Position numbers and translations under genes: made by a program
Assembly (NCBI GenBank): GCA_963662715.1
Contig: OY759724.1
Coordinates: forward strand, 3,044,982-3,108,981
Direction: 5' to 3'
From: Candidatus Omnitrophota bacterium
GTDB lineage: Bacteria; Omnitrophota; Gorgyraeia; Zapsychrales; JANLHA01
Length of the DNA: 64,000 nucleotides
Notes under the pieces: model-generated
Told to the model about the DNA's origin: nothing
What the model saw: the letters and a program-made list of their open reading frames with translations, nothing else
Databases searched by the model: none
In this document: piece by piece, positions 4,605 through 64,000 of the stretch
Position numbering within the stretch: the stretch's first letter is position 1
Layout of the letters: each line of letters opens with the position of its first letter

Positions 4605-4922
4605 ATGGAAGTTATTTTGACTGATGAAAACTTCGAACAAGAAATAATTAAATCGGATTTGCCATGTTTGGTTGATTTTGGCGCCGATTGGTGTGCGCCT
4701 TGCCGCATGGTCGCACCAATAATGAAATCAATTGCAAAAGAGTATCAAGGAAAACTGAAGGTTGGCACAGTCAATGTGGATCAAGCACCTAAGACTGCTT
4801 CTAAATACGGTATTACAAGTATTCCCGCATTGTTTCTTTTTAAGAATGGCAAAATAGTCAACAAGGCCGTTGGTGCGGCTCCAAAAGAACAGGTGGTTTC
4901 TATGTTTAAAGAATACATATAA
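4605..4922 (+). CDS. trxA: Thioredoxin
   Basis: 105 aa, canonical WCAPC active site; GGAGG-like SD (aaggggg) upstream. Confidence 0.85.
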   Translation: MEVILTDENFEQEIIKSDLPCLVDFGADWCAPCRMVAPIMKSIAKEYQGKLKVGTVNVDQAPKTASKYGITSIPALFLFKNGKIVNKAVGAAPKEQVVSMFKEYI

Positions 4923-4950: not shown

Positions 4951-5154
4951 ATGCTTTTTTCATATGAATGCCAAAAGTGCGGACATACATTCGACCTTTT
5001 AATCGGTATGACCATGGAAAAACCGAAGATGGAATGTCCCAAGTGTCAGAGCAAAAATATCGTCAAGCTCATTTCGAAACCCAGCATAAAGATAAATAAA
5101 TCCGATTCGGGAGGCAGTTGTTCGACAGGGACTTGTCCGACCTGTATCCCTTAG
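4951..5154 (+). CDS. FmdB-family zinc-ribbon protein with extra Cys-rich tail
   Basis: 67 aa; CQKCG..x..CPKCQ paired CxxC typical of the FmdB family; C-terminal CSTGTCPTC. Confidence 0.6.
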   Translation: MLFSYECQKCGHTFDLLIGMTMEKPKMECPKCQSKNIVKLISKPSIKINKSDSGGSCSTGTCPTCIP

Positions 5155-5738: not shown

Positions 5739-6119
5739 ATGAAAAATAATGGGAACATAAATATTTCTCAAAATAAGGAAAAACAGAAGCATAATCATCG
5801 GCATTCAATAAAGGAAAGGCTTTTTTTGTTTTTTAAATGGTGGCTTGTTTTTACCGGCATTTATTCCGTCTCTTCTGTATGCCCTTTTTGCGGGAAGGTA
5901 GGCTGCCCCGTTGGTCTCGGAAGCGCTGGGGCCCTTGGAGCCTTTTTTGCTTTATTTATGCAAAATTGGAAACACCTGTTGCAAAAAATTCATTTTTTAA
6001 AAAAGGAAAAAACAGAGGTAACGAAAAAATTCGAAAAAGAAAAATTTTTCGCTAAGGGAGGAGGGGGATATGGAAAAGAAGGATTTGATAATAATCGGCG
6101 CGGGTCCGGCAGGTCTTAG
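5739..6119 (+). CDS. Hypothetical small membrane protein with CPxCG..GCP motif and Gly-zipper; Gly-rich tail
   Basis: 126-aa ORF; one hydrophobic helix, CPFCGKVGCPVGLGSAGALGAFFALF. The 3' 50 nt overlap the next gene in another frame, so the true end is uncertain. Confidence 0.35.
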   Translation: MKNNGNINISQNKEKQKHNHRHSIKERLFLFFKWWLVFTGIYSVSSVCPFCGKVGCPVGLGSAGALGAFFALFMQNWKHLLQKIHFLKKEKTEVTKKFEKEKFFAKGGGGYGKEGFDNNRRGSGRS

Positions 6120-6996
6120 TGCGGCAATTTGTGCGACGGATTTGGGCATTAAACCGCTAGTATTAGAAGAAAATATGCCCGGTGGTTTAGCCTCTGAGAT
6201 TCCTGTGTTGGAAAACTATCCGGGTTTTAGTGAAGGAATCAGCGGTAAAGATTTAATAGATAAATTGATTGAACAATGCAACAAAGCCTCGATAGAAATA
6301 CATCAATTTGAAAAAGTTTTTAATCTGAAATTTGAAGCAGACGTAAAAATTATTGAAACAGATAAAGCTCAATATAGAACCAATATTGTACTTATTGCTT
6401 CCGGAAGGCATCTCAGCATGCTTGGTGTTCCCGGTGAAAAAGAATTCAAGGGGAGAGGAGTAAGTTATTGCGCAGTATGCGACCGTGCTTTTTTTAAGGA
6501 TAGGAAAGTGTCCGTTATCGGAAAAGATGTTCATGCTGTTGAAGTTGCTTTATATTTAGCTGAATTGGCATCATTAGTGAATTTTATAAATTTAGGTAAT
6601 TGGCATAAGCCAAATGATATTTTCCTGAAAAAATTAGAAGGCCGAAATATAAATGTTCTTTCCGGGGTTGAAGTGAAGGAAATCAATGGAGACATTAAAG
6701 TAAAAACTGTGGTTTTATCGGATAAGGAAACAGGAGATATTCGCGAGATAGAAACAGACGGAGTGTTTTTACAGTTAGAAGAGGAGCCTAATAGTCAATT
6801 AGCAAAAAATGCCGGTATAAAGGTAAACGAAAAAGGGTATATCCTTGTTGATGAGAAAGGAAAAACTAATTTGGATGGTGTTTATGCCGCTGGTGACGTG
6901 ACGGATGGTTCGGTAAAAAAAGTAATAACATCTGCGGCCCAGGCATTTGTAGCTGTCAATGATATATTCGAGAAAAATCAAGGAAGGTTTCATTAA
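6070..6996 (+). CDS. Thioredoxin-reductase-like FAD/NAD(P)-dependent disulfide oxidoreductase
   Basis: 308 aa; GAGPAGLSAA FAD motif, redox CxxC (SYCAVCD), second Rossmann (VIGKDVHAVE), C-terminal GDV motif. Confidence 0.8.
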   Translation: MEKKDLIIIGAGPAGLSAAICATDLGIKPLVLEENMPGGLASEIPVLENYPGFSEGISGKDLIDKLIEQCNKASIEIHQFEKVFNLKFEADVKIIETDKAQYRTNIVLIASGRHLSMLGVPGEKEFKGRGVSYCAVCDRAFFKDRKVSVIGKDVHAVEVALYLAELASLVNFINLGNWHKPNDIFLKKLEGRNINVLSGVEVKEINGDIKVKTVVLSDKETGDIREIETDGVFLQLEEEPNSQLAKNAGIKVNEKGYILVDEKGKTNLDGVYAAGDVTDGSVKKVITSAAQAFVAVNDIFEKNQGRFH

Positions 6997-45177: not shown

Positions 45178-45573
45178 ATGGTCGAACTAGTGAAATACGG
45201 AGCAACCGGCAGACGAAAAAGTTCTGTTGCCCGTGTTGAACTTATTCCCGGACAAGGGAAAATTCAGGTTAATAAAAAGGATTTTGTTGAATATTTTCAA
45301 CGGGAAACAGACCGTTTGACAATTATCGAACCCCTGAAACTTACGAATACCTTGAAAAAATTCGACGTATTGGCAAAGATTGTCGGTGGGGGGACAACAG
45401 GACAGGCTGGAGCCTTCCGTTTAGGGCTGTCCCGGGCCTTGGTGAAATTTGATCAGGAAAATAAAGGTGTATTAAAAAAAGCGGACTGCTTGAGACGCGA
45501 CCCCAGGATGAAAGAAAGGAAGAAACCCGGACAAAAGGGAGCGAGGAAAAAATTCCAATGGGTTAAGCGTTAA
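45178..45573 (+). CDS. rpsI: 30S ribosomal protein S9
   Basis: 131 aa; C-terminal ..PRMKERKKPGQKGARKKFQWVKR uS9 signature. Confidence 0.95.
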   Translation: MVELVKYGATGRRKSSVARVELIPGQGKIQVNKKDFVEYFQRETDRLTIIEPLKLTNTLKKFDVLAKIVGGGTTGQAGAFRLGLSRALVKFDQENKGVLKKADCLRRDPRMKERKKPGQKGARKKFQWVKR

Positions 45574-45595
45574 TATTTTAAAGAATTTGTTAATA

Positions 45596-45646
45596 AAAAA
45601 CCTATCTCCCTCGAGAAAAGAGTTGACGAGATAGGTTTTTTATTTT
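45596..45646 (+). terminator. Rho-independent terminator after rpsI
   Basis: AAAAACCTATCTC ... GAGATAGGTTTTTT; 8-bp core stem CCTATCTC (45601-45608) / GAGATAGG (45628-45635) followed by TTTTTTATTTT. Confidence 0.7.
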
Positions 45647-60207: not shown

Positions 60208-61056
60208 ATGAGAATGACTGTTGTGGAAGAAGAAACAACCACGCAACTAAAGAAAATAAGCATTCTGGGATGCGGGGCCATTGGCTCAGGAATAGCCAAA
60301 GCCGTTGAACAAGATTTAAAACACCTTTGTTGCCTGACAGGACTTTACGATATCAACAAGGAAAAAATAACAAGACTGGAAAAATCCTTAAACAGGGATA
60401 ATCTGGTCCGGGAATCTTTAGAAGAACTGCTTTTGGACTGCGACATCCTCGTTGAAGCCGTAAACTCATCAGATACTCATTCCCTGATTCGAAGATCCTT
60501 AGAAGCAAAAAAAGATGTATTAACTATGAGCGTCGGGAAACTTCTCAACGCTAAAGATTTATTTCATTTAGCCCGGGAAAATCGCTGTTCCCTGATTATC
60601 CCCTCGGGAGCCATCGCCGGAATTGATGCGATAAAGTCAGCTTGTCTCGTCCCTGTTGAAAAAATCACCCTCACGACTCGGAAACCCATATCAGGATTCT
60701 CAAACAATTCTTATATTAAAGACAAAGGAATCGATCTCGACGCCATTGAAGGAGAAAGACTTATTTTTGAAGGAAGCGTGGATGATGCCGTTCGATATTT
60801 CCCCCGGAACATCAATGTAGCAGCTACTTTGGCTTTAGCCTCTGAGGCAAAGAACAAAATTACGATTCGGATTATTACATCCCCGGAATACACCATCAAT
60901 TCCCATGAAATTGATATTAAGGGTGACTTTGGACATATGATCAGCCGCACGGAAAATGTCATCTCCCCTGATAATCCTAAAACAAGTTATTTAGCCGTTC
61001 TCTCAGCCATTCAGACCCTTAAGGAATTCTGCAGCGGGGTTCGTATTGGAACTTGA
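60208..61056 (+). CDS. nadX: L-aspartate dehydrogenase-like (NadX/DUF108 family)
   Basis: 282 aa; ILGCGAIGSGIA Rossmann motif and C-terminal Asp-DH domain blocks. Confidence 0.7.
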   Translation: MRMTVVEEETTTQLKKISILGCGAIGSGIAKAVEQDLKHLCCLTGLYDINKEKITRLEKSLNRDNLVRESLEELLLDCDILVEAVNSSDTHSLIRRSLEAKKDVLTMSVGKLLNAKDLFHLARENRCSLIIPSGAIAGIDAIKSACLVPVEKITLTTRKPISGFSNNSYIKDKGIDLDAIEGERLIFEGSVDDAVRYFPRNINVAATLALASEAKNKITIRIITSPEYTINSHEIDIKGDFGHMISRTENVISPDNPKTSYLAVLSAIQTLKEFCSGVRIGT

Positions 61057-61087
61057 TTTAAATATTTTTTAGAAAGGAGGTGAAAAC

Positions 61088-61471
61088 ATGGCCAAGAAGG
61101 TAGCTAAAGTTGGAGTCAAAAAAGAAAAGGGATACCTTTACTTTGTAGACAAAGACGGTGATGTTTCTTGCGCGATTATGGCTCGAGGCAATAAAAAAGG
61201 AGGCAAGCCGAAAAAAGTCGCTAAGGTCGGCATCAAGAAAGAAGTAGGTTACCTGTATTTTATTGATAAGAATGGTGATATCGCATGTGCAAAGATGGTC
61301 CGCGGTGGATCAAAGAAGAAAAAGACGACTAAAAAGGCTTCTGCCAAGAAAGCAGCCAAGAAGAAAGTAGCCAAGAAGAAAGTAGCTAAGAAGAAAGTGG
61401 CTAAAAAGAAGAAAAAAGTGGCATCCTCCAAGAAAAAGAAACCAGCCAAGAAAACCGCGAAAAGGAAATAA
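61088..61471 (+). CDS. Lysine-rich histone-H1/AlgP-like nucleoid-associated protein with duplicated N-terminal domain
   Basis: 127 aa; two about 35-aa repeats KKVAKVG(V/I)KKE(K/V)GYLYF(V/I)DK(D/N)GD(V/I)(S/A)CA(I/K)M(A/V)RG, then a KK(K)VA-repeat basic tail; AGGAGG SD upstream. Confidence 0.7.
   Translation: MAKKVAKVGVKKEKGYLYFVDKDGDVSCAIMARGNKKGGKPKKVAKVGIKKEVGYLYFIDKNGDIACAKMVRGGSKKKKTTKKASAKKAAKKKVAKKKVAKKKVAKKKKKVASSKKKKPAKKTAKRK
61355..61414 (+). repeat. Four tandem 15-bp repeats GCCAAGAAGAAAGTA (coding KKVAK units)
   Basis: Units at 61355-69, 61370-84, 61385-99 (1-2 mismatches) and a degenerate fourth at 61400-14. Confidence 0.7.
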
Positions 61472-61484
61472 GTCGTTGAAGCCC

Positions 61485-61520
61485 GAATAGCCCCTGTTAC
61501 TCATATAACAGGGGCTATTC
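61485..61520 (+). terminator. Perfect 15-bp inverted repeat hairpin downstream of the histone-like gene / upstream of uvrA
   Basis: GAATAGCCCCTGTTA-CTCATA-TAACAGGGGCTATTC; weak T tract after it. Could be a terminator or a protein-binding palindrome (contains CTGT-N10-ACAG). An extended -10 TGTATAAT follows at 61553-61560. Confidence 0.5.
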
Positions 61521-61602
61521 TTAGATTGTTCTTCCCCTTATTTCTAGTCGATTGTATAATAATTCCAATTATTAATATTAATTCAGGGTCAGATGATTAT
61601 CG

Positions 61603-64000
61603 ATGCTGCATGATTCAATCATAATAACAAATGCCAAAGAGCATAATCTCAAGAACCTTTCCCTTACGCTACCGCGCAATAAATTCATCGTTGTGACAGG
61701 CCTCAGCGGTTCGGGGAAATCGTCTCTGGCCTTTGATACGATTTATGCCGAAGGGCAAAGGCGATACGTTGAAAGTCTTTCGGCCTATGCCCGGCAATTC
61801 CTTGAACAGCTGCGAAAGCCGGATGTGGAATCCATTACAGGGTTGTCCCCGACCATTTCCATCGAACAGAAAACGATAAGCCACAACCCCCGGTCCACCG
61901 TAGCGACCCAGACGGAAATTTATGATTATTTGAGAGTCCTCTTCGCGAGGGTCGGAGTCCCATACTGCCATCAATGCGGCCGGCAAATTCAACAGCAATC
62001 GGTTGAAGAAATCGTTCAGCAGCTCATGAAACTGGAAGAAGGGACCCCCCTGATAATCCTGGCCCCGCTTATCCGCGGAAGAAAAGGAGAATACCGCGAC
62101 ATTCAAAAACAGGTCAGCAAAGCCGGTTTTGTCAGAATGCGTATTGACGGCCAGATGACCGATGTCCAGGATAAAATCAAGTTAGATAAATATAAAATTC
62201 ATCATATCGAAATCGTTGTCGACCGGTTAACCGTCAAATCCTCCGTAAAAAAGCGCTTAACTGATTCTTTGGAAACGGCGCTGAAAGTCGGCAAAGGCAT
62301 CGTCATGGCCGACTTCAATCAGAAATACCCTGAAAAAATTTTTAGCGAAAATTATTCCTGTGTTCACTGCGGGATTAATTTGACAGAAATTGAACCGCGG
62401 ATTTTTTCTTTCAACTCACCTTACGGAGCCTGTCCCGATTGCAACGGCCTGGGGATCAAAATGGAAATTGATCCGGAATTTCTTATTGATGACCCCGCAA
62501 AACCATGGATTAATGCCATCGCGCCATGGAGAAAAGGCCGGCGGAATTACCTCATGTACTACAGGGCCGTCATGAGGGAGATCGCCGCGATCTATGATGT
62601 CGATCCGGCGCTTCCTTATAAAAACACCACCAAAGCCTTCAAAAAAGTTATTCTTTGGGGGTCTGGCGATGAGGTGTGGGGAAAGCCTTTTGAAGGGATA
62701 TTAAAGTATATGAAAAGGCTTTTTGAAGAGACGGACAGCGACTGGCTCAAGGACGAGATATCCAGATACATGTCCGCATCCCCTTGTCCCACCTGCAAGG
62801 GAGACCGCTTGAGAAAAGAGTCCCTGGCTATTAAAATTCACGGGATAAACATCGCCCAGGTTTGTGCCATGTCCATAAAGGAGGCCCGGAACTATTTTCA
62901 CGATCTCAAATTAAACAAAACACAACAACACATCAGTGAACCGGTGGTCAAGGAAATCATCCGGCGTATCGATTTTTGCATGAACGTCGGGCTGGAATAC
63001 CTGACGCTGAACAGGAAAAGTTCGACCCTCTCGGGAGGAGAAGCGGAACGCATCCGCTTAGCCACTCAAGTGGGTTCCGGGCTCGTGGGGGTTGTTTATA
63101 TTTTAGATGAACCCAGCATCGGACTCCATCAAAAAGACAATGAACGCCTGCTGTCCACGCTGCAGTCCCTGAGGGATTTAGGAAACACTCTTATTGTTGT
63201 GGAACATGATGAAGCCACCATACGGGCCGCTGATTACATTGTAGACCTGGGGCCGGGAGCCGGGGAATTCGGAGGAGAGCTGACATATGCCGGTGATATA
63301 AAAGGCTTACTGACCTCGAAACGCTCCCTTACCGGAAAATATCTCCGCGGAGAATACCAGATCCCGATACCGATCAAGAGGCAAGTGACCAAAGAAACCC
63401 CGTATCTGGCCATCACCGGAGCCAGAGAGAACAATTTAAAAAATATCACGGTAAAATTTCCTCTGGGCAAGTTTGTGTGTATTACAGGCGTTTCCGGATC
63501 CGGGAAGTCCACACTCGTCGATGAAATCCTTTACAAAGCCCTGGCACAAAAATTATACAAATCACGCGATAAGCCGGGACGTTTCCGGCAAATCAAAGGG
63601 ATCGAACACATTGACAAAGTTATTGAGGTGGATCAGACACCTATCGGGCGCACGCCCCGGTCTAATCCCGCGACATACACCGGAGTCTTCAGCCATATCC
63701 GTGATCTGTTCAGCCGCCTTCCGGCATCCAAAATGAGAGGCTTCAAACCCGGACGTTTCAGCTTCAACGTTAAGGGGGGGCGCTGTGAGGCGTGCCGGGG
63801 AGACGGGATCAAGAAAATCGAAATGCATTTTTTGCCGGATGTTTATGTGGAATGTGAAGTCTGCCACGGGCAACGCTTTAACACCCAGACTCTTGACATC
63901 TTTTATCGTGATAAAAATATCTCCGATATCCTTAATATTTCCGTCGATGAAGCCCTCGACTTTTTTAATAATGTCCCGCGGATCAAGAATATTCTGCAGA
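61603..64000 (+). CDS. uvrA: Excinuclease ABC subunit UvrA (5' portion; continues beyond the window)
   Basis: [53 protein letters not shown]; zinc-finger Cys pairs; second ABC module begins near the window end. Confidence 0.95.

Follow-up and report, generated by a model that had tools for sequence, protein, structure and literature searches.

In this study, a small gene located at positions 61088..61471 of a 64,000-nucleotide (nt) stretch of Candidatus Omnitrophota DNA (GenBank assembly GCA_963662715.1, contig OY759724.1; hereafter the window) was analysed computationally together with its flanking signals and its relatives in other bacteria and in archaea. The gene, its signals and its two neighbours lie on the forward strand. 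The encoded protein of 127 amino acids (aa), present in the list of open reading frames (ORFs) exactly as an original prediction made from this DNA had described it (a repeat-containing protein), is very basic (isoelectric point (pI) 10.6, 50 K+R versus 7 D+E residues). It consists of two tandem modules, i.e. module 1 (K3-G34, KKVAKVGVKKEKGYLYFVDKDGDVSCAIMARG; 61094..61189) and module 2 (K42-G73, KKVAKVGIKKEVGYLYFIDKNGDIACAKMVRG; 61211..61306), and of a K/A/V-rich C-terminal tail of 54 residues starting from G74 (61307..61468). The gene is followed by a perfect palindrome and then by uvrA. The analysis revealed that the module pair defines a very large, unannotated protein family present in bacteria and archaea, for which a role in nucleic-acid binding is proposed below.

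The two-module core and its predicted fold

Both modules follow the consensus KKVAKVGxKKExGYLYFxDKxGDxxCAxMxRG and, counted on the translation, share 24 of 32 residues (75%). They are offset by 39 residues (117 nt in the repeat analysis of the window) and joined by a GG/K-rich linker, and together they form a core with a net charge of +12 and a pI of 9.9. Structure prediction of this core, a check suggested along with the original prediction, gave two three-stranded beta meanders (AlphaFold2; predicted local distance difference test (pLDDT) 90, predicted template modelling score (pTM) 0.73), with predicted strands at residues 3-6, 16-20 and 26-30 of module 1 and at residues 42-45, 55-59 and 65-69 of module 2. 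Across 50 diverse family members, the invariant residues are K7, G9, K11, G15, L17, Y18, D21, K22, G24, M31 and R33 in module 1, and K46, G54, L56, Y57, D60, K61, G63, D64 and A68 in module 2; in the family as a whole, eleven basic positions vary little or not at all.

The module had been described as a domain that could not be named, and this agrees with the lack of any match in Pfam, NCBIfam or solved structures. The hmmscan of the whole protein against Pfam-A (E up to 10) returned only a spurious match to RR_TM4-6, no NCBIfam model matched the protein at E up to 10, and no solved structure in the PDB matched the module. Another 25 diverse members searched against Pfam (E up to 10) received no assignment and no histone-related family. 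PADLOC made no assignment for the protein, and PHROGs gave only a weak single-module match to phrog_9154 (function unknown; E ~1e-5 to 2e-4). At the structural level, the SH3-like five-stranded barrel of the Sul7d/Cren7 type was not detected by structure comparison, and beta-propeller blade families (YWTD/PQQ/WD40) yielded no significant profile or structural match and no four-stranded blades closing a ring. Judging from the predicted model, the core is probably a new all-beta two-module fold, without a recognisable known one. A three-module relative (P0278) carries the precomputed label PF27482.1, an accession found neither in the Pfam copy used nor in the searchable literature; no other member has a Pfam label.

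A cross-domain family with a variable tail

The original prediction called the module novel and proposed a search for it in other genomes. That search showed that the module is not private to this gene but shared by a very large family spanning both domains, and that the unusual part of the window protein is its long tail. The two-module core retrieved 2363 homologues (the best 120 at 78-92% identity), nearly all of them 79-102 aa long and every one unannotated or named "hypothetical protein". A HMMER search of 1.84 billion cluster representatives gave 795 clusters at 50% identity (E at most 1e-3), and the profile search gave 6860 proteins. Rarer relatives contain 3 to 6 or more modules, or have the module pair fused to other domains: a zinc ribbon (P0277, P0280 and P0135), a HIT nucleotide hydrolase (P0195), a GAF plus RING region (some relatives), or a domain with matches to two defence candidates, PDC-S18 and PDC-S11 (P0159), in which a PD-(D/E)xK-like motif was read by eye.

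Genomic loci were scanned in one genome per GTDB species with the closer alignment A2 (the broad alignment A3 was too divergent), which confirmed at least 550 loci, and the best 80 of these were retained. Loci were grouped by record title and gene context, and the taxonomic labels of metagenome-assembled genomes were only partly checkable. The scan loci comprised 52 of the Omnitrophota type (some labelled Planctomycetales, Deltaproteobacteria or Halanaerobiales, yet with Omnitrophota synteny), 9 of Elusimicrobiota/Endomicrobia, 18 archaeal (Woesearchaeota, Nanoarchaeota and other) and 6 others (Babeliaceae, Ignavibacteria, Nitrospirae, Clostridia and two labelled only "bacterium"). The 53 Omnitrophota-type sequences in the statistics below are 46 scan loci, the window and six loci fetched earlier, while the 19 archaeal sequences include one added locus (L090).

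Sequence identity within the family is 65-85% even across domains, and the consensus sequences of the groups are almost identical. The mean core identity between archaea and Elusimicrobiota (73%) equals that within archaea (73%); the corresponding values are 67% for archaea versus Omnitrophota and 74% within Omnitrophota. In the same Omnitrophota loci the identity of UvrA is 58-81%, and conservation of the small protein therefore equals or exceeds that of UvrA; the aspartate dehydrogenases of these loci are 35-70% identical. Compared with the orthologue at locus L010, the window gene has 20 codons with synonymous changes only and 3 with amino-acid-changing ones, and compared with L040 these numbers are 40 and 9. 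An archaeal copy differs at 76 of 225 nt (~66% nucleotide identity), with many synonymous differences. This excess of synonymous over replacement changes, together with the low nucleotide identity to the archaeal copy, indicates that constraint is the main cause of the similarity, and recent inter-domain transfer was rejected as its general cause. Most archaeal sequences are nearest to other archaeal sequences. The likely exception is L014 (5001-5417): its neighbours (OapABC) are those of Woesearchaeota, yet its allele is of the Omnitrophota type, with SCAKM/ACAKM motifs and 87% identity to L066, and its tail contains a 15-bp KKKAV repeat in 10.7 copies. The gene has thus probably crossed between the domains at least once.

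The two cysteines of the window protein, one per module (C28 and C67), are an Omnitrophota trait. Both sites are Cys in 38 of the 53 Omnitrophota-type sequences and are replaced by Arg in 13/19 archaeal, 8/9 Elusimicrobiota and most other copies, which means that the cysteine is not a metal ligand required by the fold.

The archaeal copies are genuine, since they are accompanied by archaeal-type genes on their contigs, and binning artefacts were excluded on these grounds: CDP-archaeol synthase and diphthamide synthase genes lie beside the family gene on a Nanoarchaeia contig, and genes for OapB/OapC, HerA, a Mre11-like phosphoesterase and a DHH (RecJ-like) protein are found nearby on Woesearchaeota contigs. 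In 7 of the 19 archaeal loci (L041, L045, L053, L057, L065, L014 and L042) the family gene is located within ~3 kb of genes for an OapA-type small GTPase, OapB and OapC, in several cases at 100-300 nt, and the HerA, Mre11-like and DHH genes recur near the OapABC-linked Woesearchaeota loci. The haloarchaeal OapABC operon has been renamed ArvABC and drives the formation of extracellular vesicles (PMC10927574). A primarily viral or mobile origin of the family was also considered and rejected, as only 5 distant relatives (42-60% identity) were found among 2.9 million IMG/VR contigs and the Omnitrophota synteny is stable. These relatives (L093-L097) reside on five contigs labelled as viral, among them one of 103 kb and one of 430 kb. 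No account of the family was found in the searchable literature on nucleoid proteins of Omnitrophota and DPANN archaea.

The usual family member has ~80 aa, i.e. the two modules and a handful of K/R residues, so the 54-residue tail encoded in the window is an exception. Among 87 non-redundant sequences (the window, the scan loci and the loci fetched earlier, with duplicates removed), the proteins measure 73-149 aa (group medians of 77-82), and the tails span from ~3 to ~75 residues, most being only ~3-10 residues long. In the window protein, the last 52 residues of the tail contain 31 K/R (60%) and 10 A and form KKKVA repeats, and AlphaFold2 renders the tail as a long helix with medium confidence. 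The repeats are encoded by a 15-bp tandem repeat, AAGAAAGTAGCTAAG, present in 4.3 copies with 92% matches (Tandem Repeats Finder (TRF)); this is the feature named in the original prediction, located at 61346..61410 and so slightly shifted from the claimed 61355-61414. The closest relatives, L010, L098 and L100 (96% core identity) and L102 (93%), have the same synteny, are 100-101 aa long and lack the KKKVA array, which identifies the repeat as a recent, lineage-specific insertion of ~26 residues. The exact 127-aa protein was found in no record, and an exact 30-mer from the gene had no metagenome match.

Tail repeats are not limited to this gene. All 16 distinct long-tailed genes (at least 95 aa) examined at other loci, corresponding to 17 TRF records as L090 and L091 are on the same contig, carry a DNA tandem repeat in the tail. 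These genes come from Omnitrophota, Endomicrobia and Woesearchaeota, and their repeat units are of 12, 15, 24, 30, 36 or 45 nt (KKAV, KKKVA, KKTA, KRKAA and others). As the units and the lineages differ, tail expansion must have arisen many times independently, and the suspected length variability of a slippage-prone tail is supported at the between-species level.

The protein had also been called histone H1-like, which holds for the composition of the tail and not for its domains, as no linker-histone or Hc1 domain was found with Pfam. Low-complexity K/A(/V,T,P) C-terminal tracts of short repeats on a small folded domain are known from the C-terminal domain of histone H1, chlamydial Hc1/Hc2, Pseudomonas AlgP and mycobacterial HupB/MDP1, and there too the tails derive from in-frame DNA tandem repeats that vary in copy number between relatives. 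The resemblance is one of composition only: there is no Pfam match to linker histones, Hc1 or HU, the core is predicted to be an all-beta two-module structure unlike the winged helix of H1 or the HU fold, and most family members, in contrast to H1-type proteins, have very short tails.

Signals and genes around the family gene

The start codon is preceded by a Shine-Dalgarno (SD) sequence, AAGGAGGTGA (61074..61083), whose GGAGG (61076-61080) is located 7 nt 5' of the ATG. When the 82 ORFs of the window were scored against a generic anti-SD sequence, its duplex (-13.2 kcal/mol) was the joint strongest, and the genes for thioredoxin, acyl carrier protein and S9 were also among the eleven strongest. 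Orthologues at loci L001 and L004 are preceded by the same GGAGGTGA motif. The ORF that ties with the family gene (4951-5154, -13.2 kcal/mol) encodes a 67-aa Zn_ribbon_8 (FmdB-type) protein, with a thioredoxin gene (4605-4922) just before it and a thioredoxin-reductase-like gene (6070-6996) after it. At L001, the 140-nt AT-rich spacer 5' of the orthologue contains an inverted CACAGAT...ATCTGTG and an extra ATCTGTG (5880-5950), a candidate promoter-region element that is absent from the window, whose corresponding spacer measures only 31 nt.

The palindrome between the gene and uvrA is present as predicted: its two 15-nt arms, GAATAGCCCCTGTTA (61485-61499) and TAACAGGGGCTATTC (61506-61520), are 100% complementary and separated by a 6-nt loop, and it begins 14 nt 3' of the stop codon (TAA). 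Folded as RNA it reaches -33 kcal/mol (z-score of -6.6; 0/200 shuffles fold as well). The window contains a single further perfect long hairpin (45592-45644; 17-nt arms AATAAAAAACCTATCTC and GAGATAGGTTTTTTATT, 19-nt loop), which is located directly after rpsI (S9; 45178-45573) and looks like a bidirectional terminator. A Rfam scan of 60900-61750 gave sub-threshold noise only, so a known RNA element was rejected.

Strong hairpins (free energy of at most -15 kcal/mol within 110 nt after the stop codon) follow the gene in 47/53 Omnitrophota-type, 6/9 Elusimicrobiota and 0/19 archaeal sequences, and such a restriction to bacterial copies is as expected of a bacterial intrinsic terminator. In 13 orthologous loci selected for a common CCCC..GGGG core, both partners have changed in 10 of the 15 stem pairs, and pairing is maintained in 95.7% of the aligned cells, a percentage biased upward by the choice of the hairpins as best local folds. 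None of 500 shuffles reaches this level of covariation, and slid controls give at most 5 compensatory pairs. At L009 and L092, where uvrA is not downstream, equally strong and unrelated hairpins follow the gene. The palindrome thus shares with intrinsic terminators a GC-cored perfect 15-bp stem, a short loop, a position 14 nt after the stop codon and the maintenance of structure rather than of sequence. It differs from them in the weak U-tract, TTAGATTGTTCTT, with T at 5 of the 10 positions that follow the stem, and a consensus terminator scan did not flag the hairpin because of this weak T-run; together with the bias in the pairing percentage, these two points weigh against termination. Many Omnitrophota orthologues likewise combine long stems with poor T-runs, and therefore the hairpin may also, or instead, stabilise the 3' end of the transcript. 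In summary, the palindrome is probably an intrinsic terminator or a 3'-end stabilising hairpin.

The exact arm was found in metagenomes at three orthologous loci and on two unrelated contigs. The latter (L099 955-990 and L101 2181-2216) belong to an unrelated AT-rich organism and carry a near-identical palindrome, ATAGCCCCTGTTAAC...GTTAACAGGGGCTAT, which in L101, the contig examined, occupies a terminator position, with a MazG-like and a Dus-like gene converging on it. A match over 26 specified bases would hardly arise by chance, so the element could be a shared terminator-type element or the product of convergence.

The original prediction had proposed a terminator or an operator, and the data favour the first half of this alternative. 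SOS-like control of uvrA by a protein bound to the palindrome would suit its position ~85 nt 5' of the uvrA start, the presence of uvrA as the downstream gene in 39/53 Omnitrophota-type loci, and the CTGT-N10-ACAG core, which recalls the LexA box (CTGT-N8-ACAG). The core is indeed present, at a motif frequency close to chance (three in the window; shuffle mean of 1.36, with 20/100 shuffles reaching at least 3). In gammaproteobacterial LexA operators the N8 spacing is fixed, whereas here it is N10 in the window and 10, 11, 13 or 14 nt, different in each of four orthologues checked; the interval between the 15-nt arms also ranges from 6 to 16 nt across the 13 loci. A dimeric operator of constant geometry could not accommodate such variation. 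Moreover, the stem sequence shifts by compensatory substitutions, with pairing kept, whereas an operator would be expected to keep its sequence. The arm has no second copy beyond chance (within 3 mismatches) in the window, the archaeal copies lack the hairpin, and the hairpins at L009, L092, L099 and L101 occur outside the uvrA context. Finally, a perfect TATAAT (61555-61560), read by eye, which could be part of the promoter of uvrA, lies downstream of the palindrome. Control of uvrA through a SOS/LexA-type operator is thus so improbable that it is essentially excluded.

The immediate neighbours of the gene are an aspartate-dehydrogenase-like gene (60208..61056; NAD_binding_3/Asp_DH_C in orthologues), which is a conserved syntenic partner, and uvrA, identified by its translation, which starts at 61603, i.e. 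just downstream as predicted, and extends past the end of the window (61603..64000). In the Omnitrophota-type loci, the family gene is the last one of a co-directional block dapF-dapA-dapB-aminotransferase-folK-panC-aspartate dehydrogenase. The aspartate dehydrogenase gene is directly 5' of it in 50/53 of these loci and uvrA directly 3' in 39/53, being displaced in some (L009) and replaced in others (L092); neither linkage occurs in Elusimicrobiota or archaeal loci. The adjacency of uvrA is lineage-specific synteny and, as it varies across loci, carries no functional weight.

Proposed function and significance

Small size, high expression and organisation in single-gene units are typical of nucleoid-associated proteins (PMC11390915). 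The family protein fits this description in size and charge, and its strong SD and own terminator suggest high expression. From its polycationic character, these two signals, the invariant basic positions, the recurrent tails and the occasional fusions to zinc ribbons and to domains of nucleotide or nuclease type, we infer an abundant, non-specific nucleic-acid binder. It is proposed, with moderate confidence, that the family consists of small basic polyanion-binding proteins whose most likely ligand is DNA, i.e. of nucleoid-associated proteins. The genomic context also hints at nucleic acids, through the fusions to zinc-ribbon, HIT and PDC-like domains and the HerA, Mre11-like, DHH and OapABC neighbours in archaea.

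In such a model, the two tandem ~32-residue three-stranded beta modules would act as a specific docking unit, kept under extreme purifying selection, and the K/A/V-rich tail would serve as an adjustable, non-specific electrostatic clamp on DNA or RNA. Short in-frame DNA repeats, by slipping or recombining unequally, would let the length of the tail drift, and in this genome expansion of the 15-bp KKKVA unit would have added ~26 residues. The protein would be translated from the near-perfect SD sequence, and its transcript would end at the stem-loop located 14 nt after the stop codon, which would insulate the gene from uvrA, simply the next gene.

Small beta-rich chromatin proteins are known from archaea, namely Sul7d/Sso7d and Cren7. 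The family resembles them in size (60-80 aa), in being basic and, as predicted, all-beta, in having aromatics on beta-hairpins and tight D/G turns, in being monocistronic and presumably abundant, and in its presence in archaea.

Several points weigh against a nucleoid role. Abundance, nucleic-acid binding and the choice of DNA rather than RNA as a target are all inferred. The conservation of ~70% between domains is far above that usual for nucleoid proteins and would fit an invariant partner, e.g. the ribosome. Some relatives (P0121 and P0136) are attached to membrane proteins on the cytoplasmic side, an uncommon arrangement for a domain that binds DNA. Translation-related genes are also found in the neighbourhood: those for a TsaB-like protein and a KamA/EpmB-like (lysine-aminomutase-like) radical SAM protein in Elusimicrobiota, and Dph2 and Dus in one archaeon (the Nanoarchaeia contig).

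The main rival is a ribosome- or RNA-associated factor, such as a lineage-restricted ribosomal protein or RNA chaperone, with the core placed on a conserved RNA surface and the tail running along rRNA. Small size, basic character and the strong SD would suit it, as would the translation-related neighbours, to which a MMR_HSR1 GTPase gene in Woesearchaeota can be added. It is also favoured by the extreme, domain-independent conservation, with archaea as similar to Elusimicrobiota as to one another, under strong purifying selection, which is more typical of proteins that bind invariant RNA than of those of chromatin. Nevertheless, in the loci examined the gene is never located inside a ribosomal-protein operon, the phyletic distribution is too patchy to be tolerable for a core ribosomal component, a hypervariable, repeat-driven tail (73-149 aa proteins) would be unusual in a protein packed into the ribosome, and Foldseek matches to ribosomal chains were insignificant (E above 1). 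A role of this kind is thus rather unlikely.

Less likely again is a scaffold that does not bind nucleic acids, in which the modules would be generic beta-hairpin repeats, like propeller blades or choline-binding repeats, used for oligomerisation or for binding a protein partner, polyphosphate or a membrane, and the tail would be secondary. Repetition of a beta unit is what such a scaffold would share with propeller blades (YWTD/Ldl_recept_b, PQQ, BamB) and choline-binding repeats, but all scores against these families are below significance and the units have three strands instead of four; the window protein is, moreover, cytoplasmic and polycationic, with two units only and no closed propeller predicted.

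Returning to nucleic-acid binding, a broader and more tentative proposal is that the two-module core may be an undescribed nucleic-acid-binding fold of a major chromatin or ribosome-associated protein of DPANN archaea, Omnitrophota, Elusimicrobiota and some Dependentiae, held at ~70% identity by extreme constraint, with occasional inter-domain transfer. More speculatively, the blade-like three-stranded units might form a ring on DNA.

A small basic protein with a H1-like tail is of a familiar kind, while the folded core and its distribution across domains are not. The gene of the window is an ordinary family member with an unusually expanded tail, and its palindrome and its adjacency to uvrA are ordinary as well. 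The chromatin of prokaryotes is generally attributed to a small set of proteins, namely HU/IHF, histones, Alba, Sul7d/Cren7, MC1 and several more. To our knowledge, almost nothing has been described of the chromatin of Omnitrophota, Elusimicrobiota and DPANN archaea, and the unannotated protein of ~80 aa, which occurs thousands of times in metagenomic sequences, is an obvious candidate for an abundant structural component so far missing from the inventory of these cells. Being tiny, soluble-looking and synthesisable, it is easy to test, and the repeat-driven tails constitute a natural series for relating the length of a polycationic tail to binding. If DNA binding proves true, the family would provide a new fold among chromatin proteins and a marker with which to trace the exchange of genes between archaea and ultra-small bacteria; if ribosome binding proves true, it would be a new cross-domain ribosomal accessory protein.

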